From Candidatus Komeilibacteria bacterium (lineage in GTDB: Bacteria; Patescibacteriota; Patescibacteriia; UBA1558), in the NCBI GenBank assembly GCA_048538275.1, contig JBLYPW010000001.1, positions 299,924 through 363,923 on the forward strand: DNA of 64,000 nt, given 5' to 3'. A model generated the notes under the pieces. The model saw nothing but the letters and a program-made list of their open reading frames with translations, was not told the DNA's origin and did not search any database. Positions 8,751-63,510 of this stretch are shown here, piece after piece. Positions within the stretch are counted from its first letter, which is position 1; every line of letters starts with the position of its first letter. The translations under genes and the position numbers were made by a program.

Positions 8751-11135
8751 ATGAAACGCTGGCTAATTTTATTGTTTAGTACGGTTGTCTGGGCACAAAA
8801 CTGGCAACCAGTGTATGAATTGTTTAATCCCGCCATGGCTGATCATTTTTACACTATGAATCAGACAGAAGTGGAAAATGCTACCAATAATATGGATTAT
8901 ACTAATCACGGTATAATTTATTATTGGTCTTCAGTGCCATTTAGTGGCGGTATACCAATTTATCGCTTATGGCATAGTTATGATCATTTTTATACCACGT
9001 CTGTGGTAGAAAGAGATGCTTGCGTGTCTAATGGTTATACCGATGAAGGCATAGTAGGTTATTTAGCTACAACCAATAGTGGTAATTTATTTGGCTGGCA
9101 TCGTTATTATCATTCTGATTGGGATGACCACGCCTATCCTGTTAGTCAAAATGACCGTGATGTTTTGTTTGCGGCTGGTTATATTGACGAAGGTATACAT
9201 GGTTATGTCTGGATGGAATCAGGTGACACCGGCGGCGGTTCTAATCAGCCACCTGACGCTAGTTGGACTAGTGAATTGTATGATCAGTATAATTATCAGG
9301 AAATCAGTTTTTCTTGGCAAGGTAGTGACGACAGCACGGCCAGTACTGATCTTTGGTATTATGTTGATATGTCCGGTGAAGACGGTTTTGCTTATTGGAC
9401 GCCTAATAATTATATTGCTGCTTGGCCAGGCGTTGGCGAACATACCCTGACTATTACTACCCGTGATCTGAATAATCAGCTGGATCCAAGTCCGTTGACT
9501 CATGATTTTGAGACAGTGGGACATATTCCGATTGCACCAGTCAATGTGGCTGCTGTAGAGACGGACGATGGCGCTGTGCAGTTGACTTGGCAGAGCGATG
9601 ACCAGTGGAATGTTGGTTTTCGTATTTGGCGTGATTATGATCAACAGATTGCTGATTTGGGTAGCAATGCTCGTCAGTATTTGGATAGTGAGGTGGTCCC
9701 GGGTGGCGCTTATCGTTATACTGTCGTGGCTTATAATTATTATGCTCATACATCCAGCGATCCGGTTTATATCACAATCGGTGGTGGTCAAGATGATTAT
9801 CCTTGGGCTGATCGTTTTGATTATCCAGTTGGTTATCCTGATTTTGTTGGTGGTTGGTACGATGCGCAACCATTTGGTTCGGTCTTGGCTGATGCGGCGC
9901 GTTTTCATTCCGGCAATGATTTGAATAAATATGGTGGTGATCTTGGCGAGCCGATTTATGCACCAGCCAATGCTACTATTGTTTATAAAACCAATAGTGC
10001 TAATGGGTGGGGCAAGGCATTAGTTTTGTCTAGCCAAGCAGACAATGATCACTCTTTTCGTTGGCCGGATGGACATCGTAGTCGCCAGGTTTACTTTTTG
10101 TTGGCGCATTTACAGGATATTGTTGTTTATGGCGATGATCAGACTTTCACTTATGACGATATTGTGGTCGGCAGCACCACAGTACAGCGCGGTTGGCAGG
10201 TAGCTACAGTGGGTAGTCCACCGAGCAGTAATAGTCCTCATTTACATTTGGAATGTTGGTCTGAGTGGGATAGTGATAACCCTTTAGGTTTTGGTTATTA
10301 TAATGTTTTGCCTACTGAAAAGTATGACGCCATGGAGTTTATTGCCAATAATCGCCGTTTGGATAATAGTTATTATATTTGGTCTCATCCTTACAACCGA
10401 GTGTCTGATTATAATAATTGGTTCACTACTTTGTCGGATGGATGGCAGATGATAACTGGGTATGATTATGATCCTGATGTGCCGATTGGATATAGTAATT
10501 ACTTTTTGGCAGCCCCAGCTGATCAAGCAGTGAGCGCTATGTGGCAGTGGTATGTTCCAGAAGATGGTGATTATAACTTATCAGTTTTTATTCCCAGCCA
10601 ATTTTATACTGGTAGTGGCCAATATCAGTTGCAGATCTATGGTCAAGATAATCAGTTTTTCACAGTTAATGGCGGTAGCTATAGCAATCAGTGGGTGCAA
10701 ATTGGTGATTTCTCTTTGTCCAGTGATGGCCCCACTCGTTTATTACTGAGTGGCGGCGATGGTAATGCTAATGAGTGGTTGGCAGCTGACGCTATTCGTT
10801 TGTATCGGCAAGTGGATACTGGCGGCTATACTAATATTGATGAGGAGCGGGCAAGGACTCTAAGCTCTGGTTTACAAGTTTATCCCAATCCTTTTAATAA
10901 TACGGTTACAATAAATTTTATTGTGGCTCAAGCTGGTTTGGTTGGCTTGGACATTTATAATTTATTGGGACAATTAGTATATAGTTGGCCAGATGAATAT
11001 TTGTCAGTTGGTCAATATAGCTATCAATGGCAAGCTCAAAATCAGATTGGGCAAAGCTTGCCCAGCGGTATTTATTTGTTATTACAACAAGATACGCAAG
11101 GTAAGCACATTGTCAAATTGCATTATTTGCGTTAA
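8751..11135 (+). CDS. Secreted multidomain M23 (LytM-type) metallopeptidase with N-terminal HFYT..E..GY.EGI.GY repeats, FN3 domain and T9SS type-A-like C-terminal sorting domain
   Basis: Signal peptide MKRWLILLFSTVVWAQ; M23 motifs HSGND and PHLHLE; FN3-like segment (LTWQ...YRYTVVAYN); C-terminus VYPNPFNNTVTINF...IYNLLGQLV...SGIYLL...K matches Por-secretion CTD pattern; RBS aaaggagg. Confidence 0.75.
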   Translation: MKRWLILLFSTVVWAQNWQPVYELFNPAMADHFYTMNQTEVENATNNMDYTNHGIIYYWSSVPFSGGIPIYRLWHSYDHFYTTSVVERDACVSNGYTDEGIVGYLATTNSGNLFGWHRYYHSDWDDHAYPVSQNDRDVLFAAGYIDEGIHGYVWMESGDTGGGSNQPPDASWTSELYDQYNYQEISFSWQGSDDSTASTDLWYYVDMSGEDGFAYWTPNNYIAAWPGVGEHTLTITTRDLNNQLDPSPLTHDFETVGHIPIAPVNVAAVETDDGAVQLTWQSDDQWNVGFRIWRDYDQQIADLGSNARQYLDSEVVPGGAYRYTVVAYNYYAHTSSDPVYITIGGGQDDYPWADRFDYPVGYPDFVGGWYDAQPFGSVLADAARFHSGNDLNKYGGDLGEPIYAPANATIVYKTNSANGWGKALVLSSQADNDHSFRWPDGHRSRQVYFLLAHLQDIVVYGDDQTFTYDDIVVGSTTVQRGWQVATVGSPPSSNSPHLHLECWSEWDSDNPLGFGYYNVLPTEKYDAMEFIANNRRLDNSYYIWSHPYNRVSDYNNWFTTLSDGWQMITGYDYDPDVPIGYSNYFLAAPADQAVSAMWQWYVPEDGDYNLSVFIPSQFYTGSGQYQLQIYGQDNQFFTVNGGSYSNQWVQIGDFSLSSDGPTRLLLSGGDGNANEWLAADAIRLYRQVDTGGYTNIDEERARTLSSGLQVYPNPFNNTVTINFIVAQAGLVGLDIYNLLGQLVYSWPDEYLSVGQYSYQWQAQNQIGQSLPSGIYLLLQQDTQGKHIVKLHYLR

Positions 11136-15756: not shown

Positions 15757-17037
15757 ATGAAAGGCGATAAAATTGATAAAATTTATGCGCACGAAATTTT
15801 AGATTCGCGTGGTCATCCAACCGTGCAGGTGACTGTAACCTTGGATAATGGCATGTCCGCCAAGGCAGCGGTGCCTTCTGGCGCTTCTACTGGCGTACAC
15901 GAGGCTTTAGAACTGAGAGATAATGACCAGAGTCGTTTTCGTGGTAAAGGCGTATTACAAGCGGTACAGAATGTCAATACTATAATCAATGATTTATTGC
16001 ACGGCCATGAGATTGGGGATATAGAGGGTGTAGATAAAAAAATGATAGAAGCTGATGGTACTGAGAATAAAAGTAAATTGGGTGCTAATGCAATTTTGGG
16101 AGTTTCATTGGCGGTGGCTCGAGTAGGTGCTATTGCCTCTGGTTTGCCTTTGTACCAATATATTCGTGAAGTTTATAATTTGCAATATGATGGTTGGCGA
16201 TTGCCCACGCCTTTAGTAAACATTATCAATGGTGGTAAACATGCTGATAGTAATTTAGATTGGCAAGAGTTTTGGATAATACCGTCGGGCATCAAAAAAT
16301 ATCCTTTGGCTTTACGGGCGTGTTCAGAAATTTTTCATGCTTTAGGAAGCGAGTTAACCAAAAAAGGTTATGATACGGATTTTGGTGCTGAGGGTGGCTA
16401 TGCTCCTGATGTCAAAGATACTGCCGAAGTTTGGGATATGATTATAGCGGCTATAGCACAAGCCAACTATCAAATTGGTCAGGACATCTATTTGGGTATG
16501 GATGCGGGCGCTTCTACTTTTTATAATACCGGCACCGAGCGTTATCAACTGGATTTGGAAAATAAGTCTTTTACCGCTTCAGAATTGATTGAATATTATC
16601 ATACATGGTTGAATAAATATCCTATTTTAGCTTTGGAAGATGGTTTGGCGGAAGATGATTGGGTTGCTTGGCAAACCATGACGGCAGATAAAGAATTTGT
16701 TGATAAAAAAGTAATCCTGATCGGCGATGATTTGTTTACTACCAATACCAAACGCTTGCAACGTGGCATTGATGAGCATGTAGCTAATTCAATTTTGGTA
16801 AAGCCCAATCAAATTGGCACTTTGACGGAAACAATCGCGGCGGTAAAACTGGCACAAGCAAATAATTATCAAGTGGTTATTTCACATCGTAGTGGTGAAA
16901 CAACAGATGATTTTATCGCTGATTTGACAGTAGCTGTCAATGCTCCTTTTATTAAAACTGGTGCTACTTCTCGGGGCGAGCGGATAGTAAAATATAATAG
17001 ATTATTAGAAATAGCGGAGGAAGTAAATCATGAATAA
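15757..17037 (+). CDS. eno: Enolase
   Basis: Conserved enolase N-terminus (ILDSRGHPTV) and C-terminal SHRSGETTD motif. Confidence 0.9.
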   Translation: MKGDKIDKIYAHEILDSRGHPTVQVTVTLDNGMSAKAAVPSGASTGVHEALELRDNDQSRFRGKGVLQAVQNVNTIINDLLHGHEIGDIEGVDKKMIEADGTENKSKLGANAILGVSLAVARVGAIASGLPLYQYIREVYNLQYDGWRLPTPLVNIINGGKHADSNLDWQEFWIIPSGIKKYPLALRACSEIFHALGSELTKKGYDTDFGAEGGYAPDVKDTAEVWDMIIAAIAQANYQIGQDIYLGMDAGASTFYNTGTERYQLDLENKSFTASELIEYYHTWLNKYPILALEDGLAEDDWVAWQTMTADKEFVDKKVILIGDDLFTTNTKRLQRGIDEHVANSILVKPNQIGTLTETIAAVKLAQANNYQVVISHRSGETTDDFIADLTVAVNAPFIKTGATSRGERIVKYNRLLEIAEEVNHE

Positions 17038-18583
17038 TAAACGATCAAATACGCCATTATTATTAGCCATTCTAGATGGCTGGGGAATTGGTAAACCTAG
17101 CCGCGGCAATGCTATTACTTTAGGCAAAACCCCTAATTATGATAAATGGTGGCGTCATTATAGCCATACCAAGTTATTTACTTCTGGCCAATATGTTGGT
17201 TTGCCACGGGCGCAATTTGGCAATTCAGAAGCGGGGCATTTGAATTTGGGCGCGGGCCGGGTAGTTAAACAGGATTCAGTGCGGATCAGTGATGCAATTA
17301 AAGATGGGCGATTTGCCAAAAATCCCGCTTTTTTGACTGGCCTCCAACACTTACAAAAATATAAAGGTAGAGCTCATGTTATGGGTTTATTATCCGGTAG
17401 CGAGTCGGCTCATGCCGAACGAGGACATTTGTTGGCGGTATTGCAATTGTTAGCCGATCACAAGATTCGGGAGGTTTATTTACATTTATTTACTGATGGT
17501 CGTGATGCGCCTCAACATGATGCTATTAAATTTGTGCGAGAAGTACAAAAAGGTTTTTGTAATGGTGAGCGGATTGTATCCATTGTGGGACGTTATTATG
17601 CCATGGATCGCAATAAACGTTGGGGTAATACTGAGCGAGCATATGAATTATTAACACGTGGTAAAGGATATTGGGCACCTAATCCAGAAGAGGCTATTAT
17701 GCAGGCTTATAATCGCAAAGAGACAGATGAGTTTATAGAGCCGACTAGTATTCGTCCTAAAGAATCAGATAAGCCGATAGTGATTAAAGATAATGATATA
17801 ATTATATTTTATAATTTACGTTCAGATAGAGCACGGCAATTAGCTAAAACATTTGTACAGTCTGATTTTAATAAAAGTAATCTTGGATCTTTTATTCGCA
17901 AGCCGGTATTATCCAATATTAAATTTATTGCCATGACAGATTTTGGTCCAGATTTGGATGAGATTATTACTGCTTTTCCCAGTGAAGATCTCAAAGAAAC
18001 TTTGCCGATGATGCTAAAAGATTTAAGACAGCTGTATATTGCTGAAAGTGAAAAATTTGCCCATGTCACTTATTTTTTTAATGGCGGTTATGCTAATCCG
18101 GTTAATAATGAAAAACGCAGTTTAATTCCATCACCTCATTTGAAGTCTTATGCTGACAAACCAGCCATGTCTATAAATCATTTGGCAGACACTTTATTGT
18201 CTAATATTAAAGAAGATAAGTTTGATTTTTATTGTGTTAATTTTGCTAATCCAGATATGATTGGTCATACCGGTGATTTGGAAGCGGCTATACAAGCCGT
18301 AGAAGTGGTAGATGAAGTTATCGGCAAGATACAGTCAGCTTTGGCGGCTGTGGGAGGTACCATGATTATTACCGCTGACCATGGCAATATTGAAGCCATG
18401 ATTGATTTGAAAACAGGCGAAGTAAATACCGAGCACACAGACAATCCCGTTCCTTTCATTATTATCAATGAACATAAATATCGTTTGCGACGAGGAGGTA
18501 GTCTCGCCAATGTCGCGCCGACTATTTTAGATTTATTGGATTTACCCAAGAGCAAGCTGATGACTAAGTCTTTGTTAAAATAA
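17030..18583 (+). CDS. gpmI: 2,3-bisphosphoglycerate-independent phosphoglycerate mutase (copy 1)
   Basis: LAILDGWG, catalytic Ser context FGNSEAGHLNLGAGR, TDGRD, TADHGN motifs. Confidence 0.85.
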   Translation: MNNKRSNTPLLLAILDGWGIGKPSRGNAITLGKTPNYDKWWRHYSHTKLFTSGQYVGLPRAQFGNSEAGHLNLGAGRVVKQDSVRISDAIKDGRFAKNPAFLTGLQHLQKYKGRAHVMGLLSGSESAHAERGHLLAVLQLLADHKIREVYLHLFTDGRDAPQHDAIKFVREVQKGFCNGERIVSIVGRYYAMDRNKRWGNTERAYELLTRGKGYWAPNPEEAIMQAYNRKETDEFIEPTSIRPKESDKPIVIKDNDIIIFYNLRSDRARQLAKTFVQSDFNKSNLGSFIRKPVLSNIKFIAMTDFGPDLDEIITAFPSEDLKETLPMMLKDLRQLYIAESEKFAHVTYFFNGGYANPVNNEKRSLIPSPHLKSYADKPAMSINHLADTLLSNIKEDKFDFYCVNFANPDMIGHTGDLEAAIQAVEVVDEVIGKIQSALAAVGGTMIITADHGNIEAMIDLKTGEVNTEHTDNPVPFIIINEHKYRLRRGGSLANVAPTILDLLDLPKSKLMTKSLLK

Positions 18584-18589
18584 ATTTTT

Positions 18590-20176
18590 ATGTTTGAAGA
18601 CAGACCAAAACCAGTTGTGTTGCTTATTTTAGATGGCTGGGGAGTAGCGCCAGCTTCCAAGGCCAATGCTGTGACTTTGGCGGATACCAAAAATTTAGAT
18701 AGCTATATTTTGCAGTATCCGACAGTAACCTTGCAGGCGGCAGGAGAAGCTGTGGGTTTGTCTTGGGGAGAGATGGGTAATTCTGAAGTTGGACATTTAT
18801 CTTTGGGCAGCGGTAAGATTATTTATCAAAGTTTACCTCGTATTACTCGGGCCATTTCTGATCACTCTTTTTTTACCAATGAAGGGTTTATTAATGCCAC
18901 CAAGCATGTCAAAGAAAATAACAGTGCCTTACACTTAATGGGATTACTTTCAGATGGTAGCGTACATAGTTATAATGAGCATCTTTATGCTTTGGTAGAA
19001 ATGGCCAAGGAGCAGGAAGTCAGTAATGTATTTATACATATTTTCTTAGATGGCAGAGACACGGCCTATAATGCGGGTATAAAATTTGTTAAAAAATTGG
19101 AAGATAAGCTCAAGCAAATTGGCTTGGGCAGGATTGCTACTGTATCTGGTCGATATTATGCTATGGATAGAGATAATCATTGGGAGCGTATCGCGAAAAC
19201 TTATTGGGCTATGACTGAAGGGGAGTCAGATAAGCAATATAACAATGCCACAGACGCTATTCAAGCTTCTTATGATGCGGGTGTTTATGATGAAGAATTT
19301 GTGCCAGTAGTGATTAGCGATAATAATAAACCGGTAGCTATTGTAGGCGAAAAAGACGCCATAATATTTTTTAATTATAGATCGGATAGAGCACGGCAAT
19401 TGACCAAGGCCTTTGTTTTACCCAGTTTTGATAAGTTTGATAAGCCGCGACCTTATTTAAAGGATTTATATTTTGTCACTATGACAGAATATGAGAAAGA
19501 TTTACCGGTTAAGATCGCTTTTCCTCCTATACAGGTAGAAGCGTCTTTAGCAAAAGTTATTTCTCAAGCAGGATTAAGCCAATTACATATAGCGGAAACT
19601 GAAAAATACGCCCATGTTACATTTTTTTTCAATGGGGGCAGAGAAGAAAAATTTGCAAATGAAGATAGGATTTTGATTCCATCGCCTCGTATTCCAGCCT
19701 ATAATGCGCAGCCAGAAATGAGCGCCGGTCAGGTGACTAATAAGATAGTAGAGGCGGTCAAACAGAATAAATATGATTTTATAGTGGCAAATTTTGCTAA
19801 TCCAGATATGGTGGCTCACACCGGTGATATAAAAGCTACCATCATCGCTTTACAATTTATTGATCAGTCAGTTGGTCGTATAGTAGAGGCGGTCTTGGAA
19901 CGTAATGGAGTGATATTGATAACTGCTGATCATGGTAATGCTGAAGAGTTGTTTAAATTACAGACCGGAGAAATAGACAAAGAACATTCTACTAATCCCG
20001 TGCCACTCTATATTATTGCTAATGAATTGAAGGACAAAACTATTATTCCCGGAGTTAATCCTCAAAATCTATGCCAGCAAACGCCAGTAGGTATTTTGTC
20101 CGATGTAGCGCCAACTATTTTGCATATTATGGGATTAAAAAAACCCGCTACCATGACAGGCACGAGTTTGATTTAG
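18590..20176 (+). CDS. gpmI: 2,3-bisphosphoglycerate-independent phosphoglycerate mutase (copy 2, divergent tandem paralog)
   Basis: LLILDGWG, MGNSEVGHLSLGSGK, LDGRD, TADHGN motifs; immediately downstream of copy 1. Confidence 0.85.
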   Translation: MFEDRPKPVVLLILDGWGVAPASKANAVTLADTKNLDSYILQYPTVTLQAAGEAVGLSWGEMGNSEVGHLSLGSGKIIYQSLPRITRAISDHSFFTNEGFINATKHVKENNSALHLMGLLSDGSVHSYNEHLYALVEMAKEQEVSNVFIHIFLDGRDTAYNAGIKFVKKLEDKLKQIGLGRIATVSGRYYAMDRDNHWERIAKTYWAMTEGESDKQYNNATDAIQASYDAGVYDEEFVPVVISDNNKPVAIVGEKDAIIFFNYRSDRARQLTKAFVLPSFDKFDKPRPYLKDLYFVTMTEYEKDLPVKIAFPPIQVEASLAKVISQAGLSQLHIAETEKYAHVTFFFNGGREEKFANEDRILIPSPRIPAYNAQPEMSAGQVTNKIVEAVKQNKYDFIVANFANPDMVAHTGDIKATIIALQFIDQSVGRIVEAVLERNGVILITADHGNAEELFKLQTGEIDKEHSTNPVPLYIIANELKDKTIIPGVNPQNLCQQTPVGILSDVAPTILHIMGLKKPATMTGTSLI

Positions 20177-21431: not shown

Positions 21432-22085
21432 TAGTGTGATAGGTAGGGTACGAAAGGCTTGATAGCTATTATTGTAATCCGACATCATTTCCGATAATTT
21501 TAATTTGCGAGGACTACCAAAAATTTGTACTACTACCACCTGTTGTTGTCCCTGCAGTTTACCCATGATCACGGCTAGGCCAATTTCACGGTATTTGTCA
21601 TTTAAGATATTAGCACGGTGTCCGCTAGAATCCATCCATGCCTTCATTACATCTTTGTTGGTTGTAAAACCAGCTGCTAAATTTTCGCCGATAATCTGAT
21701 AGTCATAGCCAACATCATCTATCCAGCTACTGAAAAAACTGCCATCGGGAGCATTATGAGAAAAAAAATTATTCGCTATTAAATCAGTCGCCTTAGCTTG
21801 TGCGGCGGCGTTTAATTTATCGTTCACAGTCAATGGTTGTAATTGCTTGATGTCACGTATCTCATTGGTTAGCATAATCAAGTCATTGGCAGCTATACTG
21901 CTATCCAATAAGCTGGGTGATTGAGAGGTGGCACTTGGTACAAAAAAAAGTAAGCAACCAGAGCCTACTATTATTAATACAGCTATAGACAACCAAAAAA
22001 TAGCTTGGTGTTTATTTATTGACATTTGGACCCTCGTTTTTGTTTTTGTGGCTAATTTTGGCCACTTATATATACAGTATATCAT
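21420..22085 (-). CDS. CAP/SCP (PR-1-like, YkwD-type) domain protein with N-terminal TM anchor (start possibly at 22025)
   Basis: ATDLIANNFFSHN...GENLAAGF...AWMDSSGHRANIL CAP-domain motifs. Confidence 0.65.
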   Translation of the reverse strand: MIYCIYKWPKLATKTKTRVQMSINKHQAIFWLSIAVLIIVGSGCLLFFVPSATSQSPSLLDSSIAANDLIMLTNEIRDIKQLQPLTVNDKLNAAAQAKATDLIANNFFSHNAPDGSFFSSWIDDVGYDYQIIGENLAAGFTTNKDVMKAWMDSSGHRANILNDKYREIGLAVIMGKLQGQQQVVVVQIFGSPRKLKLSEMMSDYNNSYQAFRTLPITLSII

Positions 22086-22308
22086 ATTCTTTGGTAAAAG
22101 TCAAGGTTAATAAATATCATGCCAGATTTTAGAATCAGTCGTTGAGGATGATTGATTATCTAATCATTTAAACTATTGATTGTCAAGGCAAATAAAATAG
22201 GCTCAATCATTTGATGGAGCCTTTTGCCAACCTGTTTGGTGACCATGCATCCGATGCGGTTGTCCCGTAGATGCATTATTCCTTAGCAGGAATAAGGTCA
22301 ATGCTTCG

Positions 22309-22611
22309 CTACAGCCTGGTGATTAAAAAGATATCATAGCCTTGTGCCTTGATTTCTTCGAGACTATGCTCGCAGTATCCAGACAAGCGACCACGTACCT
22401 TGATTACCAGAGCTTCATCGTAGCCTTTACAGACATGACGTTCTGTAACAGGCTCAATGCCAAGCAACCTAACCGTGTCGTGACCGACAAAATTTTCGGC
22501 GACTTGGGCGAAAGCCTTGGCCTGGTCCAGGTCAATACGCCTCATCTGCCAATTGCCACATTCCAGCAACATGGTAGTAGAGAGTATGACCTTGCGGTTA
22601 ATGGTTTCCAT
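22309..22611 (-). CDS. Small DUF1874 (STIV B116-like) family protein, tentative
   Basis: 100-aa ORF in a locally GC-rich segment; pattern VILSTTMLL...VGHDTV..LLG....YDEALVIKV...LS.EEI resembles DUF1874 recalled from memory; overlapping + strand ORF judged a shadow. Confidence 0.4.
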   Translation of the reverse strand: METINRKVILSTTMLLECGNWQMRRIDLDQAKAFAQVAENFVGHDTVRLLGIEPVTERHVCKGYDEALVIKVRGRLSGYCEHSLEEIKAQGYDIFLITRL

Positions 22612-22876
22612 GTTTGAACTTCACTGGCTAAGCGGCTGCGCCTGGAGCCCTATTAGCCTGTATGGTAACCGTTTTTGGAAACCTAACCTTAAAAAGAACG
22701 ATAGCGTACCTTAGCATAGGATATTTTTTTTGTCAAGCCCCTGTACTTGATGACCACCTTTCGGGCACTTTCATATATTTTTAGTTGATTTGTAGACTTG
22801 TGAGGTGGGGTTTGTATTAATGTTACAGATTTTTTTAACATTCTTGATATTAATAGTTTATTATCTACATATTAAA

Positions 22877-22903
22877 TTGACAATTGTTAGGGGGGGGTAT
22901 AAT
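22877..22903 (+). promoter_or_regulatory. Sigma70-like promoter (TTGACA-15 nt-TATAAT) with G8 homopolymer tract in the spacer
   Basis: TTGACA at 22877-22882, TATAAT at 22898-22903, spacer contains gggggggg (22890-22897); 80 bp upstream of repeat-protein gene. Confidence 0.45.
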
Positions 22904-22985
22904 TAAGATGAAGCTAGATGTTTATTTTTACTATAATATAATTCAGTCTAGTCTAAATCTATTATTTAACACTTAATTAAATTCT

Positions 22986-24734
22986 ATGAGTATTGAAAAA
23001 AATGGTGGTTTTAAGTCTCCAGAATTTAGCTCAACACCTTCAATAGAACAAAAAGAGCAAGCAAAAGAAAAACTTTTACAAGAAGCATTGCAAGAGAGCT
23101 ATGAGTTAAATTTAAATGCGGGTCATATTGTACATGCAGAAAAAATTAGCGAAGACAGAGGAATAAGTTTAAACTCAGAAATATTCCAGATAGCGTATGA
23201 TGCACAAATAAATAAGGGTGATATATATACCGCTACTAGGGTAGCTAAGTTAGCCGAAGGCAAGGGATTGAAATTAACCCCCAAAGCTGAAAGTTTGCAA
23301 TTAGGCTATGAAAAAGCAATGGAAATGGGAAAAAAATACGATATTGAAAAAATAAAACAGTTTGCCCAAGAAAAAGGCATTAAACTAACAGTAAATAAGG
23401 ATGCTATCCAAAAATGGTGCGATTATGCGCTTGAGAACGGTGATAGTGGCATATTAAAAGAAATAAAAAAAATTGCCAAAAAAGAAAGAATAGAATTAGA
23501 AGTAAAAAAAGAAGTGTTGCAAAAGACTTATGATAAAAAACTTAATGAGTTAGAAGATTTGATCTCATTAACAGAAATTGAACAATTTGCTAAACAGAAT
23601 GACATTGATTTGGAAGTTAATAAAAAGATTCTGCAACAAGGGCTTGAAAATTATATAGAGTATGCAGCACCTAGAGAACCATATGAAAACTTGTTAGCTG
23701 ATGTTAAAAAAATTATAAATTTTGCCACTAAGAAGGGTGTTAAGATAAATATAGATGATATAGATGACAAAAAGGTACAAGAACTATATGAGAAAGGGTT
23801 AATAAATGGGGACAGTAGAATGATCAAAGGGATGAAAAATCTTGCCAGTGAGAAAGGCATAGATTTGGATATTCAAAAGTTAGATTTACAGGAATTATAC
23901 GATAAGTTTTTTACAGATGGGGAAATATATATAGCGCAACAGATAAAAGAAATAGGTGACGAAAATGGTTTAGAAGTTAAAGTCCCGAGTAAAGAAAAAA
24001 TACAAAAAAATTATGATATACTGTTAGCTTCGGGTAATCAATATGGAGCACTTAAAATACAACAATTTAGTGGTGATAATGGAATAGCGATTGAAATAAA
24101 AAAGGATATGTTACAAAAGGCGTATGAGACAATTTGTAATGGTAACATGGAGAGTGTGAACCTTAATTATATGTCCGACCTTGAAGAAATGGCTAAAGAT
24201 AATGGATATGAGATTGAAAACGCTAAAGAGCTAATTGAAAAAACTTATATTGAAGTTATTCATAATTTGAATATGGGCCATGCTGGTGCCAAAAGGGAGG
24301 GGCTAATAAAAAAACTAAAGGAACTAGGCTCTGATCTAACCTATGAAGATGTTATCAAGATGGATTATCTTGATTATTTAAAAGTACCAGAAGAGCAAAG
24401 ATTGAGCATACAAAAGACAATGGAAATAGATGGTGCGCCCATAAGGGTTAGCTTTTATGGTCAGAAGCAAGAAGCTCCGGTACATGGTAAGTTTATCATC
24501 GGCACAAGTACAGATAATGGTTTAGAGTTTGTTTTCGATAGTACATTAGGAGAACATGGGGATATTGGCAACAAATATAATTTAGAAGTGATTGGTGGTG
24601 GTTGGTTGGAAATAGATGAAATAAACAAGAAAATAAAGATTCACAGAAATAGTGAGGATTATGGTTATGAACCGAGGTCTATATCTAAAAGAGTGATAGC
24701 TGATACTTTCTCTGATTACGAGATTATAGTGTAG
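22986..24734 (+). CDS. Tandem-repeat protein (~9 helical repeats of ~38-40 aa) with distinct C-terminal beta-rich domain; no signal peptide; strongly AT-rich
   Basis: Repeating I..FA...GI.L.V.K..LQ..Y.....NG pattern through residues ~100-420; composition ~30% GC versus ~40% in neighbours. Confidence 0.6.
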   Translation: MSIEKNGGFKSPEFSSTPSIEQKEQAKEKLLQEALQESYELNLNAGHIVHAEKISEDRGISLNSEIFQIAYDAQINKGDIYTATRVAKLAEGKGLKLTPKAESLQLGYEKAMEMGKKYDIEKIKQFAQEKGIKLTVNKDAIQKWCDYALENGDSGILKEIKKIAKKERIELEVKKEVLQKTYDKKLNELEDLISLTEIEQFAKQNDIDLEVNKKILQQGLENYIEYAAPREPYENLLADVKKIINFATKKGVKINIDDIDDKKVQELYEKGLINGDSRMIKGMKNLASEKGIDLDIQKLDLQELYDKFFTDGEIYIAQQIKEIGDENGLEVKVPSKEKIQKNYDILLASGNQYGALKIQQFSGDNGIAIEIKKDMLQKAYETICNGNMESVNLNYMSDLEEMAKDNGYEIENAKELIEKTYIEVIHNLNMGHAGAKREGLIKKLKELGSDLTYEDVIKMDYLDYLKVPEEQRLSIQKTMEIDGAPIRVSFYGQKQEAPVHGKFIIGTSTDNGLEFVFDSTLGEHGDIGNKYNLEVIGGGWLEIDEINKKIKIHRNSEDYGYEPRSISKRVIADTFSDYEIIV

Positions 24735-25000
24735 AATTAGTTGATAATTTTTAGCACATCAGTTCAGACACTCTAATTTAAATTTATTATCATCAAACAT
24801 AAATTTAATATGTTTGGTTAATTTCACAATTTCTAATTCTAATATAATTTGTGAAAACAGGGGTGTCCGAAAGGTATCTCATCTTTTGCAGCCCATTATC
24901 AGGAATAATTATACAAACAAATATTTTGTTCACTCGGGTATAATAAGTTTTGTAGTTAGTTGGTTTTTAGTTTATAATAAAAAAAGAATAATTATTTTTT

Positions 25001-25633
25001 ATGGCTTACCAAAATATTGATCAGCTAATAGACTACCTCAAGGGCAAAAGTGTTTTGCATTCACCCCGTCTGGAGCAAGCCTTACGTATAGTTGATAGAG
25101 GTGATTTTGTGCGTCCGGAAACAAGGCCTTGGGCCTATTGGGATGAGCCTTTGTCTATTGGTTATGGCCAAACAATATCACAGCCGGCAGTAGTAGTATT
25201 TATGTTAGAATTATTGGCTCCGCAAATGGGGGAGAATGTTTTAGACGTGGGTTGTGGTTCTGGATGGCAAACGGCTTTATTGGCCTATTTGGTTGGTCGA
25301 GAAGGTAAGGTGACTGGTTTAGAAATAAAGCCACCTTTAGTACAACAAGCCAAGGTTAATTTAGTACCTTATGAATTTAGTAATATTGAAATTTTATTAG
25401 CTGATGGTCACGAGGGGTTTAGCTTGGGCGCGCCGTATGACAAAATTATTATAGCGGCGGCTACGGAAGAGTTGCCAGAGGTTTTGTGGCAACAATTGAA
25501 ACCGGATGGTGTGATGGTATATCCTGAGGGTAAAGGTGCCCAATCTATTGTCCGTTTGCGGAAAAATCTGGATGGCACTAGAGAACGTTCTAGTTGGCCA
25601 GGATATTTATTTGTACCATTTGTGCGACAATGA
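25001..25633 (+). CDS. pcm: Protein-L-isoaspartate O-methyltransferase
   Basis: LDVGCGSGWQTALLAYLVG SAM motif and PIMT-family architecture. Confidence 0.8.
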   Translation: MAYQNIDQLIDYLKGKSVLHSPRLEQALRIVDRGDFVRPETRPWAYWDEPLSIGYGQTISQPAVVVFMLELLAPQMGENVLDVGCGSGWQTALLAYLVGREGKVTGLEIKPPLVQQAKVNLVPYEFSNIEILLADGHEGFSLGAPYDKIIIAAATEELPEVLWQQLKPDGVMVYPEGKGAQSIVRLRKNLDGTRERSSWPGYLFVPFVRQ

Positions 25634-31926: not shown

Positions 31927-34068
31927 TTATAGAGGAATGACGAATAGGGTATGAGGTGTTATTAGGAAGGCGCGTTGCTGATCTTCTTGAATGCTCATAG
32001 CTTGTAGGTCAATGAATTTGTCGGAATGGTATTGTTTGATCAATTTGCCATTTTTATCCAGTACTATTAAACGATTATTCTCTGGATCCAGTAAATAAAT
32101 ATTAGCACTTTCGGGAGAGGTAAATAGTTGGCTGGGATTATTAAGCGGCGGGTATATGTTGATAGCTGGGAAATCTATTTGTCTGCCAGCGCTGAGTTTG
32201 ATAATTTTATTATTTTGTAAAATATAAATATTACCGTCAATGGCCAGATCCTTGGCATCAGTAAGATCAATATTGTCTTTTAGCCATAAATCGGGCGATT
32301 GAAAAGCATTGCCGACTAGGCGATGACGATAAACTTGATCGGTTTCATTATCTAATACATATAAGCGATTGAAAAAGCTAGTGGCTGATGAGACATTTTT
32401 TAATCCAGCACTATATGATATGGGCATGGGTTGCAGAGCATCATTGTTTACTTGGAAAATATTATTATTTTGATCAAAAATAATTATGCTATCATCCGGG
32501 GCTATGGTAGTAAATTTAATTTTTTGCATATTGGCAGGATAGGGAGTGGTGCTGAATTCTTTTTGTGTAAAATTATAATTTACCCAATCATTGCCATTGG
32601 TAAAAAGATAAATATTATCTTCTTGAGCCATAACTTTTTGCCAACTTATTGTTTGGTTTAGTTGATCACTACTTATGATCGCTACTGGCTCTGCTATATC
32701 CATAATATTCCAAATACGCTCGGTCAAAATATTAAGCTGTTGTCGCCAACCATCAATAGCATTTTGGTAATTTTTATCTGTCACAGGAAATTGATCGCGT
32801 AAAATAATCAGATCGTCTAGTAAAGTTTGAGCGCGTAGACGGTCACCATATATTAAAGCAGCTTCTATATTTTCACTTTTGTTGGTAAATTCATTATTGA
32901 TAGTAGTGAATTGTTCTTCCGTTAATCCCTGCGGGCCTTTAGATAAGAGGATAATAACTATTATTATGATAGCCGCAGCAATTAAGCCAGTGGCGACCAA
33001 CTTTTGTTTTAGGTTTATATGTTTTAGCCATTGCCAGCTCCAAGCACGACGGCGATGAATATTATCTGGATGGATAAGATTGACTATGATATTTTTTAGC
33101 TGCAATGCTATCCAGAGAAGTCCTATGCCTAGATTACGTAGTAACCACCATATTTTTTTTCCTAGCCAATGAAAAAATCTGATTAATAAAGGCATTATAT
33201 TGGATTGGCTGAAAGCGTCTTTCAAATTACTTAAAGTAGAGGTAAATGCTTGCCAACTGGATGGCACGGTCATAATTTGTTGGGTTTGTTTTTGCGTTAC
33301 TATTAACTGGTCTAAAGAAGCTTTGGATTTAACAGTAGTGGCATTATCATGCGGCCTGTTGATTGGCTCCATCGGTGTAATGTCTGGCGTAGACCTGTAT
33401 TCTTCTTCCGCTACGCTATTTTTTATAATAACACTTAAAAAAGAAACATGATCAGAAACCTCTGCCACCATATTTTGAAATTGGGCGGCAGCGGAGAGCG
33501 CCGGTATGGTGGTGATTATTTTTCGTACTTTGTCTAAAGATAAATAGTCAAGGAGAGAATCATTGGTTAACAAAAAAGCAAATCCTGGTTGTAATTGGCC
33601 AGTGATCACATTGGCAAATATTTTTACTGGATTAATAGGTCCATTGTCCTTACCGACAACATCTATAGCTTTTAACGGATGTAGTAAATAACCTTGCCAT
33701 TGACCGAGTAGAGAGATGTTTATAATATTATCTTTAATATTGCCTATGCCAATATTAAGATTTTGAAGAATTTTTTTATTGTGGGGCAAGTTTTGTGGTA
33801 GCCACTGATTTATTTCATTTAAGGAGTATTCTAAAATTTTAGTAGAATCTTCTAATACTGAGCTATAATAGAAATGGTGAATTTTTTCTAAAAATGCTCC
33901 AATAAATTTATCATAATCATTTTCCGGATTATTGATATTGATTAAAACAAAAAGACAGCCATTTTTAGCTAGCTGAGCAGGATCATTTTCCACGTATATA
34001 TCGCCGATGGAATCGGCGTGTACAGGGTCTTGTATAAAAATTTTAGCTGTTTGGATATTGGCTGCCAT
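31927..34068 (-). CDS. Membrane protein: N-terminal cytoplasmic domain, 2 TM helices, C-terminal beta-propeller-like extracytoplasmic repeat domain
   Basis: 713-aa ORF; TM segments in the middle; C-terminal repeated IYLLDPENNRLIVLDKNG / LYVLDNETDQVY / IYILQNNKII blade-like motifs. Confidence 0.5.
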   Translation of the reverse strand: MAANIQTAKIFIQDPVHADSIGDIYVENDPAQLAKNGCLFVLININNPENDYDKFIGAFLEKIHHFYYSSVLEDSTKILEYSLNEINQWLPQNLPHNKKILQNLNIGIGNIKDNIINISLLGQWQGYLLHPLKAIDVVGKDNGPINPVKIFANVITGQLQPGFAFLLTNDSLLDYLSLDKVRKIITTIPALSAAAQFQNMVAEVSDHVSFLSVIIKNSVAEEEYRSTPDITPMEPINRPHDNATTVKSKASLDQLIVTQKQTQQIMTVPSSWQAFTSTLSNLKDAFSQSNIMPLLIRFFHWLGKKIWWLLRNLGIGLLWIALQLKNIIVNLIHPDNIHRRRAWSWQWLKHINLKQKLVATGLIAAAIIIIVIILLSKGPQGLTEEQFTTINNEFTNKSENIEAALIYGDRLRAQTLLDDLIILRDQFPVTDKNYQNAIDGWRQQLNILTERIWNIMDIAEPVAIISSDQLNQTISWQKVMAQEDNIYLFTNGNDWVNYNFTQKEFSTTPYPANMQKIKFTTIAPDDSIIIFDQNNNIFQVNNDALQPMPISYSAGLKNVSSATSFFNRLYVLDNETDQVYRHRLVGNAFQSPDLWLKDNIDLTDAKDLAIDGNIYILQNNKIIKLSAGRQIDFPAINIYPPLNNPSQLFTSPESANIYLLDPENNRLIVLDKNGKLIKQYHSDKFIDLQAMSIQEDQQRAFLITPHTLFVIPL

Positions 34069-45476: not shown

Positions 45477-46592
45477 ATGCAGAAGGATATTTTTTTTATT
45501 GAAGCGGCCGCTATTCTTATCGGCACCACCATTGGCGCCGGTATTTTAGCTATCCCTTATGTTATAGCGGAAGCCGGTTTTTTAAGCGGTTTAGTGATGG
45601 TGATAGTAGTGACACTCGTGATGTTGGTATTAAATTTAATGGTTGGGCAGCTGGCATTGGGTACCAAAGACTTGCATCAGCTACCGGGCTATGCGCGTAA
45701 GTATTTGGGTCGTACCGGAGAACGGCTAATGTTTGTATTGATGGTAGCCTCTATTTATGGAGCTTTGCTGGCATTTGTTATTGGTGAGGGTAGAGTATTA
45801 GCAGATTTGTTTGGTGGTAGCCCTATGTTAAGTAGTTTAATCTTTTTGGCGGTGGGCGCCATTATTTTATATTTTGGTCTGAGTATTATCAGGCGTTTAG
45901 AATTATTATTGACACTGGTCATTTTTTTTATAATATTATTGCTTTTTTGGTGGAGCAGGCCATTTATTGCCTGGGATAATTTAAAGGTTTTTTCTTGGCA
46001 AAATATATTATTGCCCTATGGAGCGGTATTCTTTGCCGGCATGGGCTTTTCTTCTATCGCCCAGATGCGAGAAGTTTTAATTGGTAGGGAAAAGTTATTG
46101 CGCAAAGCTATTGTGGTGGGTACTTTTGCACCAGCTATCATTTATGTCATTTTTTCTTTATTGGTAGTAGGTGTTAGCGGTAGCGCTACCAGCGAAGTCG
46201 CCACTATTAATTTGGGCCACATTATCGGACCGCAGATGATAATCTTTGGTAATATTTTTGCTTTTGTTACCATGGCCACCACTTTTCTTGCTTTAGGCTT
46301 GGCTTTGAAAAAAGCTTTTATCCAAGATTTGCGGCGTTCAGCTAATGTAGCTTGGTTATTAACCTGTTCTGTACCGGCAGTTGCTTTATTATTAGGTTTG
46401 AATAGTTTTGCTAATATTGTCAGTATTGTGGGGGCAGTAGCCGGCGGCTTACAAGGCGTGCTCATTGCATTGACCTGGTATTATATGCATCAGATGGAGC
46501 GTAATCCAGAATATCGTTTACCACATACTGTTTGGCTTTTATTGCCGGTGTTAATAGTCTTATTGGCGGGCTTGTTCAGCGTTTGGTGGTGA
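45477..46592 (+). CDS. Amino-acid permease-like transporter (Trp/Tyr permease-like fold)
   Basis: 11-TM-like 371-aa protein, N-terminal IGTTIGAGILAIPY motif. Confidence 0.45.
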   Translation: MQKDIFFIEAAAILIGTTIGAGILAIPYVIAEAGFLSGLVMVIVVTLVMLVLNLMVGQLALGTKDLHQLPGYARKYLGRTGERLMFVLMVASIYGALLAFVIGEGRVLADLFGGSPMLSSLIFLAVGAIILYFGLSIIRRLELLLTLVIFFIILLLFWWSRPFIAWDNLKVFSWQNILLPYGAVFFAGMGFSSIAQMREVLIGREKLLRKAIVVGTFAPAIIYVIFSLLVVGVSGSATSEVATINLGHIIGPQMIIFGNIFAFVTMATTFLALGLALKKAFIQDLRRSANVAWLLTCSVPAVALLLGLNSFANIVSIVGAVAGGLQGVLIALTWYYMHQMERNPEYRLPHTVWLLLPVLIVLLAGLFSVWW

Positions 46593-61587: not shown

Positions 61588-63510
61588 ATGGAAAATCCAG
61601 ACTGGCTAAAAAATAAATATAATGATTTACACAATACAAAAGAAGTAAAGTCAGCTGTTCGAGCAGAAGAGCAGTTTACTGGTGAAAAAGTACCACAGAA
61701 TCCAGAACAACAGATTCAAAGCTATTTAGATCGTTTAGAAAAGTTAGTCCTTGATCCAGATAAAAAGCAATCAAGGAAAATGATGGGTAAAGAGCAAAGA
61801 CCAAGAGCCCTATCCTTACTTAGAGAAATGGTAATGAATGAATATATTCGTCCTAATAAAGAAAAACTAGCAGAAGGAGCAGCCAGAGTAGAAGAAAGAG
61901 CAGCTAGGAACTTAGGAATGGATATTGAATATGGAGAAGAACAATTAGAACAAAGAGGTGAAATAGCTATAGAAGATTTAGAAAAATCACTAGATAATTG
62001 GATTTCTTATCTTTCAGATGCTAATGAACCATATCCAACTTGGTTTAGATATTATGCTTTTAGAAATATATTAAAGCTAGGAGATTATGATAAAGACAAA
62101 AAAGAGTTTACCAAGAGAACTAAAGGTAGTACTAAACTATTCCCCGAAATAGATAGGGGAGCCTTAGCATATATACAGCAAAATATAGAAGCTTCTAAAG
62201 ATCCTAAAATACTTGCCAAGCTTCAAGAAGCACAAAAACAAGCAGCTAATGGTGATGTTCCAGAAGATCAGCTTATCACCAAAGAAAAGGTACAAAACTT
62301 TTCTAATCTTTCCTTTGCTAAGCAATATGCAGAAGGAATATCTAAAAATGGTGAAATAACCCCAGAGCTTAGAGCCATAACAGAAGGTAAATGGGTTAAG
62401 TATCAACAAGGTACAGAACCAACAGCTCTTTGGTCATCTCTACAAAACAAAGGCACAGCTTGGTGTACAAAAGGTTTTGCTACAGCCAAAACTCAACTTG
62501 AAGGTGGAGATTTTTATGTATATTACACATTAGATAAAAAAGGCAGTCCTACTATTCCTAGAATAGCTATAAGAATGCAAGGAGAGAATGTAGGAGAAGC
62601 CAGAGGAGTAGAAGACAGTGATCAGAATATGGAAGGTAATATGATAGCTATTGCCGAAGAAAAGCTAAGTACACTTCCAGGAGCTGAAAGCTATAAAGAA
62701 AAAACAGCTGACATGAAAATGCTTACTAGTATATATAACAGACATAAGCAAGGAGAAGAACTTATAAAAGAAGACCTTATCTTTTTATATGAAATAGATA
62801 AACCTATTCAAGGCTTTGGTTATAAAAAAGATCCGAGAATAGAAGAAATACGAGACAAAAGAGATGTAACCAAAGATGCATCAATTGTATTTGAATGCAC
62901 TCCAGATCAAATAGCTAAAAATATTAATGAAGTAAATGAAAATACAGTAGCATATATAGGGCAATGGAATATACCAGCTTTTCAAGTAATTAAAAACCAT
63001 CCCAATATTATTTACTTTTATGAATCTTTCCCAGATAAAAAGATATTCATGCAAACTCTAGAAACAGATCCTAGTATAGATTCACCTGATACAGCCAAAC
63101 AGTCTCTTAAAGATAAGAACATCTATCTTTCAGATTGGGGAAAGGATATTTTAGAAAAAACAGAGTTTAGTAAAGAAAAACAAGAATATGATTTAGTGAG
63201 ATTTACAGTAGAGCAATTAGGATTTCCAAATGGTGCTACTACTGATGAAATATATAATAAAGCTCAAGAGCTCGGACTTGAATTATGTCCAGCTGAAATT
63301 GGACCTCAATTAAGATTACAAAGTACTAGTAAGGAATGGATGCTTATTGCTATGAAACAGATTATAGACCGTGATGGCGCTCCGTCGCTGTTCGATCTGC
63401 GTGATGATGGTTATCAGCTGGTACTGAGCAGCGACGGTGCTTGGTCTGACGGCAGGTGGTTTTCGGACGGTAGGTTTGTGTTTCATTACCGCCCCAGTAG
63501 CAAAGCGTAG
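61588..63510 (+). CDS. Orphan 640-aa hypothetical protein; AT-rich body with abrupt GC-rich 3' end
   Basis: Long uninterrupted ORF, charged/low-complexity N-terminus, no signal peptide; composition shift at ~63360. Confidence 0.5.
   Translation: MENPDWLKNKYNDLHNTKEVKSAVRAEEQFTGEKVPQNPEQQIQSYLDRLEKLVLDPDKKQSRKMMGKEQRPRALSLLREMVMNEYIRPNKEKLAEGAARVEERAARNLGMDIEYGEEQLEQRGEIAIEDLEKSLDNWISYLSDANEPYPTWFRYYAFRNILKLGDYDKDKKEFTKRTKGSTKLFPEIDRGALAYIQQNIEASKDPKILAKLQEAQKQAANGDVPEDQLITKEKVQNFSNLSFAKQYAEGISKNGEITPELRAITEGKWVKYQQGTEPTALWSSLQNKGTAWCTKGFATAKTQLEGGDFYVYYTLDKKGSPTIPRIAIRMQGENVGEARGVEDSDQNMEGNMIAIAEEKLSTLPGAESYKEKTADMKMLTSIYNRHKQGEELIKEDLIFLYEIDKPIQGFGYKKDPRIEEIRDKRDVTKDASIVFECTPDQIAKNINEVNENTVAYIGQWNIPAFQVIKNHPNIIYFYESFPDKKIFMQTLETDPSIDSPDTAKQSLKDKNIYLSDWGKDILEKTEFSKEKQEYDLVRFTVEQLGFPNGATTDEIYNKAQELGLELCPAEIGPQLRLQSTSKEWMLIAMKQIIDRDGAPSLFDLRDDGYQLVLSSDGAWSDGRWFSDGRFVFHYRPSSKA

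Follow-up and report, generated by a model that had tools for sequence, protein, structure and literature searches.

In several bacteria, slippage in a simple-sequence repeat within or beside the core promoter alters the spacing of the promoter elements. The repeats are TA units in the overlapping promoters of hifA and hifB in Haemophilus influenzae, a poly-A tract in the spacer of vlp in Mycoplasma hyorhinis, and a poly-C tract upstream of the -10 element of fim in Bordetella. Homopolymers of G or C that are prone to slippage are usually 7-9 nt long or longer. Homopolymer switches located in promoter spacers are classical in a small number of host-adapted pathogens. The poly-C promoter of opc and the poly-G promoter of Neisseria meningitidis porA are of one and the same kind. 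At porA, a run of G residues lies in the spacer that separates the -35 from the -10 element, and surface expression is high with 11G, 2-fold lower with 10G, and 13-fold lower with 9G (PMC3639595).

Here, we describe a candidate promoter of the porA type in an uncultured Komeilibacteria bacterium of the candidate phyla radiation (CPR). It was found in a stretch of 64,000 nt, hereafter called the window. The promoter, P1, shares with porA a G homopolymer in the -35/-10 spacer, and its expression would likewise be graded through spacing, with single-nucleotide states and no frameshift that turns a gene on or off. Tracts of G10, G9, and G8 correspond to P1 spacers of 17, 16, and 15 nt, and low expression is predicted for the state found in the assembly. 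P1 differs from porA in its shorter tract (8 versus 9-11 nt), in that no length variants were observed, in its uncultured CPR host, and in its product, which is a soluble repeat protein with a PHPT1-like domain rather than an outer-membrane porin. P1 resembles hifA/hifB, vlp, and fim in that a repeat could alter element spacing, but the type or position of the repeat is another one, and variation was shown experimentally in those systems, whereas P1 is known from sequence alone. The mechanism itself is familiar; the novelty is in the host, in the gene family, and in tracts that appear to be convergent. In the literature that we searched, no paper links phase variation to CPR or Patescibacteria, and the two terms appear together in a single paper only, on archaeal methylation.

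Promoter geometry and spacer preference

Re-reading of the sequence gave TTGACA, a 15-nt spacer ending in G8, and TATAAT, exactly as the preliminary description of this DNA had stated (Table 1). Its observation that a G8 run is otherwise nearly absent from an AT-rich window also holds: there is no other G or C run longer than 6 nt in 64 kb, and the window is moderately AT-rich, at 38.4% GC. P1 lies in the 374 nt of intergenic DNA that separate a minus-strand gene for a 100-aa protein from a plus-strand open reading frame (ORF) of 582 aa. It is oriented toward the latter, with 82 nt between P1 and the ATG. From the usual 7-nt distance, transcription would start at about 22910-22911.

Table 1. 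Coordinates of the features discussed, in window positions unless another locus is named.
Feature	Position	Strand	Remark
-35 hexamer of P1, TTGACA	22877-22882	+	Direct read; part of the sole intergenic 12/12 pair in the window
Spacer of P1, ATTGTTAGGGGGGGG, 15 nt	22883-22897	+	2 nt under the 17-nt optimum of the genome
G8 homopolymer, candidate slippage tract	22890-22897	+	Abuts the -10 hexamer; sole G/C run >6 in 64 kb
-10 hexamer of P1, TATAAT	22898-22903	+	Direct read
P0, further promoter-like match, TTAACA-18-TATTAT, 10/12	22835-22864	+
P2, alternative weak promoter, ATGAAG-18-TATAAT, 9/12	22908-22937	+	-10 at 22932-22937
Putatively P1-controlled gene, 582 aa: about ten 37-aa PPR-like helical-hairpin repeats and a C-terminal PHPT1/Janus-like domain	22986-24734	+
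Nested inverted repeat, 12 nt, perfect	22867-22878 / 24802-24813
Nested inverted repeat, 13 nt, one mismatch	22756-22768 / 24863-24875
Terminator-like hairpin with T-rich tail, 3' of the 582-aa gene	24860-24880	+
Divergent neighbor gene, 100-aa protein, weak STIV_B116-like Pfam match	22309-22611	-
PCMT gene	25001-25633; L010/L011:1-78		Directly 3' of the family gene in the window; upstream of clpB and the family gene in L010/L011
L009 promoter, TTGCCC-15-TATAAT, extended -10 (TGtTATAAT)	L009:2939-2965		JGI 3300037810, contig Ga0376277_0004132; C7 tract at 2942-2948

The window was scanned for sites that match TTGACA-N-TATAAT at 10 or more of the 12 positions, with spacers of 13-21 nt, and the matches were divided into intergenic and coding on the basis of crudely called genes. 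Intergenic matches number 14 at a spacer of 17 nt and 3-6 at each of the other spacers, while coding matches are spread evenly across spacers (10-23 each). Eight sites match at 11/12 and have a 17-nt spacer; one of them (63698) is in a doubtful 73-aa ORF, and the others are all located between called genes. Seven of these eight have a called gene directly downstream, and one stands immediately 5' of an Rfam L10 leader. We find that this genome uses canonical sigma-70-type promoters with a strong preference for a 17-nt spacer. Since intergenic matches peak at this length, the 15-nt spacer of P1 is sub-optimal. The proposal that one or two additional nucleotides would restore optimal spacing is therefore sound in its geometry, as G9 and G10 give 16 and 17 nt. 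With G10, P1 would be a perfect 12/12 promoter with a 17-nt spacer, closer to consensus than any other site in the window.

Three other readings of the region were tried and rejected. The window contains a single copy of the 43-nt P1 region, even with up to 3 mismatches allowed, and this region does not appear to be a repeated or mobile promoter element. For a structured RNA or riboswitch between the two genes, Rfam gave no match even at E ≤ 1, and folding of the putative leader was no better than that of shuffled sequences (z = 0.57). Two nested inverted repeats bracket the gene as they might in an invertible segment or transposon, but they are probably chance matches, and the aligned flanks carry no extended terminal repeat.

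Recurrence of the tract at a homologous locus

The family to which the 582-aa protein belongs, with its PPR-like array and PHPT1-like domain, is very rare: 56 clusters were found at E ≤ 1e-3 among 1.84 billion representatives. DNA was recovered for seven further family members, representing six distinct gene contexts. One of these loci, L009, encodes a homologue (P0008) that is 42% identical to the window protein over matched stretches and is flanked by genes different from those in the window. Upstream of it, L009 reads TTG-CCCCCCC-AACAGGTATGT-TATAAT, 35 nt 5' of the P0008 ATG. This is the best and closest promoter-like site for the P0008 gene, and its C7 tract is the sole G/C run of at least 6 nt in the 7.8-kb locus. 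C9 would give a 17-nt spacer. Because the L009 tract is on the opposite strand and at the -35 end of the spacer, as against the -10 end in the window, it arose independently.

Homologues that have no tract have best promoter-like spacers close to the optimum: 17 nt at L001, L002 (TTGAAA-17-TATAAT), and L007, 16/18 nt at L008, and 17/18 nt at L012. The L001 and L002 proteins are 47-50% identical to the window protein. At L010/L011, the family gene is operonic and lies directly behind clpB.

The window and the seven family loci together span 99.5 kb, in which there are only two G/C runs of at least 7 nt. These are the window G8 and the L009 C7, and both lie in a promoter spacer, so that two of seven family promoters hold them. 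By our own arithmetic, the probability that two random runs both fall in the ~175 nt of family spacers is ~3e-6, or ~2e-4 if the calculation is restricted to intergenic DNA. A C7 tract at L009 with the same 15-nt result is the signature that would be expected if selection favors a mutable tract at this position. This recurrence is, in our reading of the sequences, the strongest argument that the tract exists for a reason. Such tracts are known to serve phase variation.

The homologues of L001 and L002, P0002 and P0003 (L001:1-2066 and L002:1-2046; ENA ERZ27315056), come from one metagenome and are encoded on contigs whose first 141 nt are the same, which is an assembly branch at k=141. Identity between the two proteins is 77% over their first 52 aligned residues, 28-50% in the repeats, and 90-100% in the PHPT1-like domain. 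About 40 nt past the stop codon, the DNA of the two contigs diverges completely. The repeat array thus appears to diversify fast and to be hypervariable between conserved ends, with P0002 and P0003 being alleles or paralogues. A hypervariable array joined to a conserved C-terminal domain would fit genes under conflict, which are typical contingency loci.

A second strain

An identical copy of the protein encoded by the divergent neighbor gene is present in the Logan runs SRR32315888 and SRR32315886, and an exact-protein look-up with it led to contigs L005 and L006. L005 (SRR32315888) spans 21739-23113. Over ~1,365 nt, five substitutions separate it from the window (21765, 22612, 22843, 22937, and 23099), three of them in the 374-nt intergenic region, and there is no indel. 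The substitution at 22937 turns the -10 hexamer of P2 into TATAAC, with loss of the final conserved T. This suggests that P2 is under no strong constraint.

Comparison of tract length with related genomes had been recommended, and here it brought no difference to light: the metagenome-assembled genome (MAG) and L005 both have G8 despite five SNPs, a comparison of two sequences that has little power to detect polymorphism. Truly hypermutable tracts often differ between strains this close. The identical tract length of the two strains is weak evidence (n = 2), and its direction is away from very high switching rates.

Wider searches returned no additional copy. Scans with protein patterns of GTDB genomes, JGI metagenomes, and IMG/VR gave no match to the same gene, and an exact DNA pattern of the promoter gave none in JGI metagenomes. 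The neighboring protein-L-isoaspartate methyltransferase (PCMT) retrieved unrelated proteobacteria only. Exact-protein look-ups gave no match for the repeat protein, the PCMT, or the CAP protein. A profile search of a word-indexed protein database returned the same three proteins only, probably because low-complexity K/E words saturated the candidates.

The downstream gene and its neighborhood

In NCBI, the identical protein is entered as hypothetical, from a MAG of 'Candidatus Komeilibacteria bacterium'. A tandem-repeat protein had been proposed downstream of P1, and the AlphaFold2 model of the whole protein (pLDDT 75) agrees with this: about ten helix-turn-helix repeats with a period of ~37 aa are followed by a beta-rich domain. 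Among PDB structures, Foldseek ranks PPR proteins, both designed and natural, highest for the repeat array (E down to 7e-9, TM 0.16-0.23), and no Pfam PPR family was matched at E ≤ 0.01. The likeness to PPR proteins is structural only and consists in the tandem hairpins. PPR proteins have a period of 35 aa, as against ~37 aa here as judged from the helix starts of the model, and nothing points to RNA binding in the window protein.

The C-terminal domain (residues ~470-582) is predicted to have the PHPT1 fold. Residues 517-579 match the Pfam Janus/Ocnus family (PF05005) at 27.7 bits, above the curated cut-off of 23. A family profile matched PHPT1 in the PDB at E = 2.3e-7, and hhalign gave a probability of 96%. 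For the model of the domain (pLDDT 93.3), the five top PDB matches are human PHPT1 chains (E = 4e-5 to 9e-5, TM 0.54-0.73, rmsd 2.3 Å), and the next match is at E ~0.1. H524 is near-invariant in the family within the motif H-x-D-I-x-x-K, of which D526 and K530 are invariant. It resembles what we take to be the motif of the catalytic His53 of human PHPT1, H53-A-D-I-Y-D-K, a segment that the HMM and hhalign alignments stop short of. Unlike human PHPT1, the window domain is fused to a ~450-aa helical repeat array. It is ~20% identical to the human protein, the loop that precedes its GGG motif is shorter, and its phosphatase activity is putative.

The preliminary description drew a parallel with surface and host-interaction genes, and the sequence gives no indication of such a role here. 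No signal peptide or membrane segment was found in the 582-aa protein, and it has no hydrophobic segment: in stretches of 19 residues, Kyte-Doolittle hydropathy peaks at 0.56. Nothing thus speaks for a classical surface location, and in this respect the protein differs from most classical phase-variable surface proteins. PADLOC annotation for anti-phage defense gave no match for this protein, its neighbor, or P0008.

The view of the gene as acquired fares no better. Its GC content (32.5%) and GC3 (0.266) lie inside the range of the window. In three genomes that differ in GC content, family genes fall 5-7 GC points short of the sequence on either side, which points to an effect of amino-acid composition in these K/E/I/N-rich proteins. 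An acquired island, as judged by composition, was rejected for the repeat gene; the outlier is the divergent neighbor gene, whose GC3 of 0.545 exceeds that of every other gene in the window (median 0.34). This neighbor is likelier to be foreign than the repeat gene. It has a promoter-like site of its own, TTGACA-17-TAAGGT, starting at 22736 on the minus strand. A PCMT gene adjoins or is near the family gene in two genomes.

Elsewhere in the window, an enolase gene (15757-17037) is directly followed by two tandem paralogues of cofactor-independent phosphoglycerate mutase (17030-18583 and 18590-20176, plus strand), which are 39% identical. A 794-aa protein (8751-11135, plus strand) combines DUF5648, Peptidase_M23, and Golvesin_C with a Por_Secre_tail, the sorting signal of type IX secretion; to our knowledge, this signal is unusual in a CPR genome. 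Two large ORFs have no Pfam match at E ≤ 1e-5: 31927-34068 (minus strand, 713 aa) and 61588-63510 (plus strand, 640 aa), the latter with a very low GC3 of 0.209.

Alternative explanations

That the sequence arose by chance and has no function, or that it reflects an error of sequencing or assembly, for example at poly-G, is very improbable. Singly, neither the G8 nor the perfect hexamer pair is very improbable. A G8 run is expected 0.2-0.6 times per 64 kb (0.33 at order 0, 0.59 at order 1, and ~0.25 from the empirical run-length decay of 81/16/4), and the other long runs in the window are four G6 (12224, 21322, 46726, and 60818) and one C6. The window holds 47 TTGACA and 174 TATAAT sites on both strands, and by our own arithmetic ~0.6 perfect pairs with spacers of 13-21 nt are expected per window by chance; a second one, with a spacer of 14 nt, lies at 45909 within a coding region. 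The non-random part is the conjunction of G8 and perfect pair, repeated independently at a homologous gene. That the sole G8 falls within the sole intergenic, correctly oriented 12/12 pair has a probability, again by our own arithmetic, of order 1e-5 to 1e-4 per window. An artefact is countered by the position of the tract midway in a 487-kb contig, away from any read or contig end, and by a separate assembly: because the independent Logan contig from SRR32315888, five SNPs apart, also reads G8, the tract is not an assembly artefact. We consider chance and artefact to be largely refuted.

Two rivals take the tract as real. In the smaller of them, which we hold to be improbable, P1 is not the working promoter, the gene is read from P2 or P0, and the TTGACA, G8, and TATAAT have little effect. 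MAFFT does place the -10 of P2 on that of the L001/L002 promoters, perfect pairs like that of P1 are expected by chance and one is found inside a gene, and promoter-like matches are only mildly enriched in the AT-rich DNA of the P0 region (38 found versus 28.3 expected). But P2 matches at 9 positions only and has a poor -35 element, its -10 shows no visible constraint in L005, and the upstream alignment with the homologues on which its placement depends shows little identity. In L009, the parallel promoter with C7 is the best and closest site for its gene, which speaks against P2 and P0 alike. The main rival, unlikely but to be taken seriously, is a fixed and deliberately weak promoter. Here the tract would act on evolutionary time only: after a longer run had shrunk, or a run had newly formed, the low 15-nt state was fixed, with no meaningful reversible switching. 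The identical G8 of two strains 5 SNPs apart, with no indel between them, is consistent with this, as are the 15-nt state shared by both tract-bearing family members and the tract lengths of 8 and 7 nt, which from general knowledge are short for slippage at a high rate. But a fixed promoter leaves unexplained why a homopolymer, and not just any sequence of 15 nt, should occupy family spacers twice independently when no other run of at least 7 nt occurs in 99.5 kb, and a comparison of two genomes has little power to detect variation. The common 15-nt state fits a gene that is mostly off and occasionally on, and equally a fixed, detuned promoter.

Discussion

We propose that P1 may be a promoter-spacer rheostat of the Neisseria porA type that was caught in its low state. 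Of the readings weighed here, this is the best supported; we consider the candidate plausible, and our judgment for and against it is evenly balanced. P1 (22877-22903) would be the sigma-70-type promoter of the 582-aa gene, in which the length of a slippage-prone G8 run determines the -35/-10 distance. As assembled, the spacer is 2 nt short and transcription from P1 would be low. Slipped-strand mispairing at replication would add one or two G residues and give 16 or 17 nt, with G10 making the perfect consensus promoter. Cells with high expression would thus arise at low frequency, and reversibly. We infer that P1 is in use as a promoter, that slippage alters the tract often enough to be useful, and that tract length governs expression.

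Several of the features that characterize promoters of this class can be recognized at P1. The G8 run is a G/C homopolymer long enough to slip, at the borderline in length, and it lies between recognizable hexamers whose spacing it sets, as TTGACA-(7 nt + G8)-TATAAT. One or two units shift this spacing between the optimum of the organism and a non-optimum, and the C7 tract of L009 represents recurrence at a related locus above chance. In length, G8 and C7 barely reach the range regarded as phase-variable in Neisseria, Haemophilus, and Campylobacter. At L009, the extended -10 (TGt) may lessen the dependence on spacing. The original idea of a phase-variation switch is thus strengthened by the spacing geometry and by the recurrent tract at L009, while the uniform G8 of the MAG and L005 gives it no length polymorphism to draw on.

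MutS and MutL, two mismatch-repair proteins, are absent in Saccharibacteria and present in other CPR groups (PMC8406219). Other simple-sequence repeats found in the window by TRF are short, low-copy, and AT-rich only, with no sign of a wider switchable set.

A broader reading combines the fast diversification of the repeat array with stochastic switching by G/C tracts in separate lineages, and would make this a contingency-gene family of CPR/Patescibacteria. We offer this tentatively and regard it as doubtful. If true, the candidate phyla radiation would have in P1 its first described phase-variable locus, which would suggest that a phosphohistidine-directed factor takes part in conflict between symbiont and host or with phages. 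If the tract proves invariant, P1 is merely a detuned promoter of little interest. If its length varies, ultra-small and probably episymbiotic bacteria use contingency loci too, and an uncharacterized family that joins PPR-like repeats to a PHPT1-like domain would be a likely player in their interactions or conflicts.
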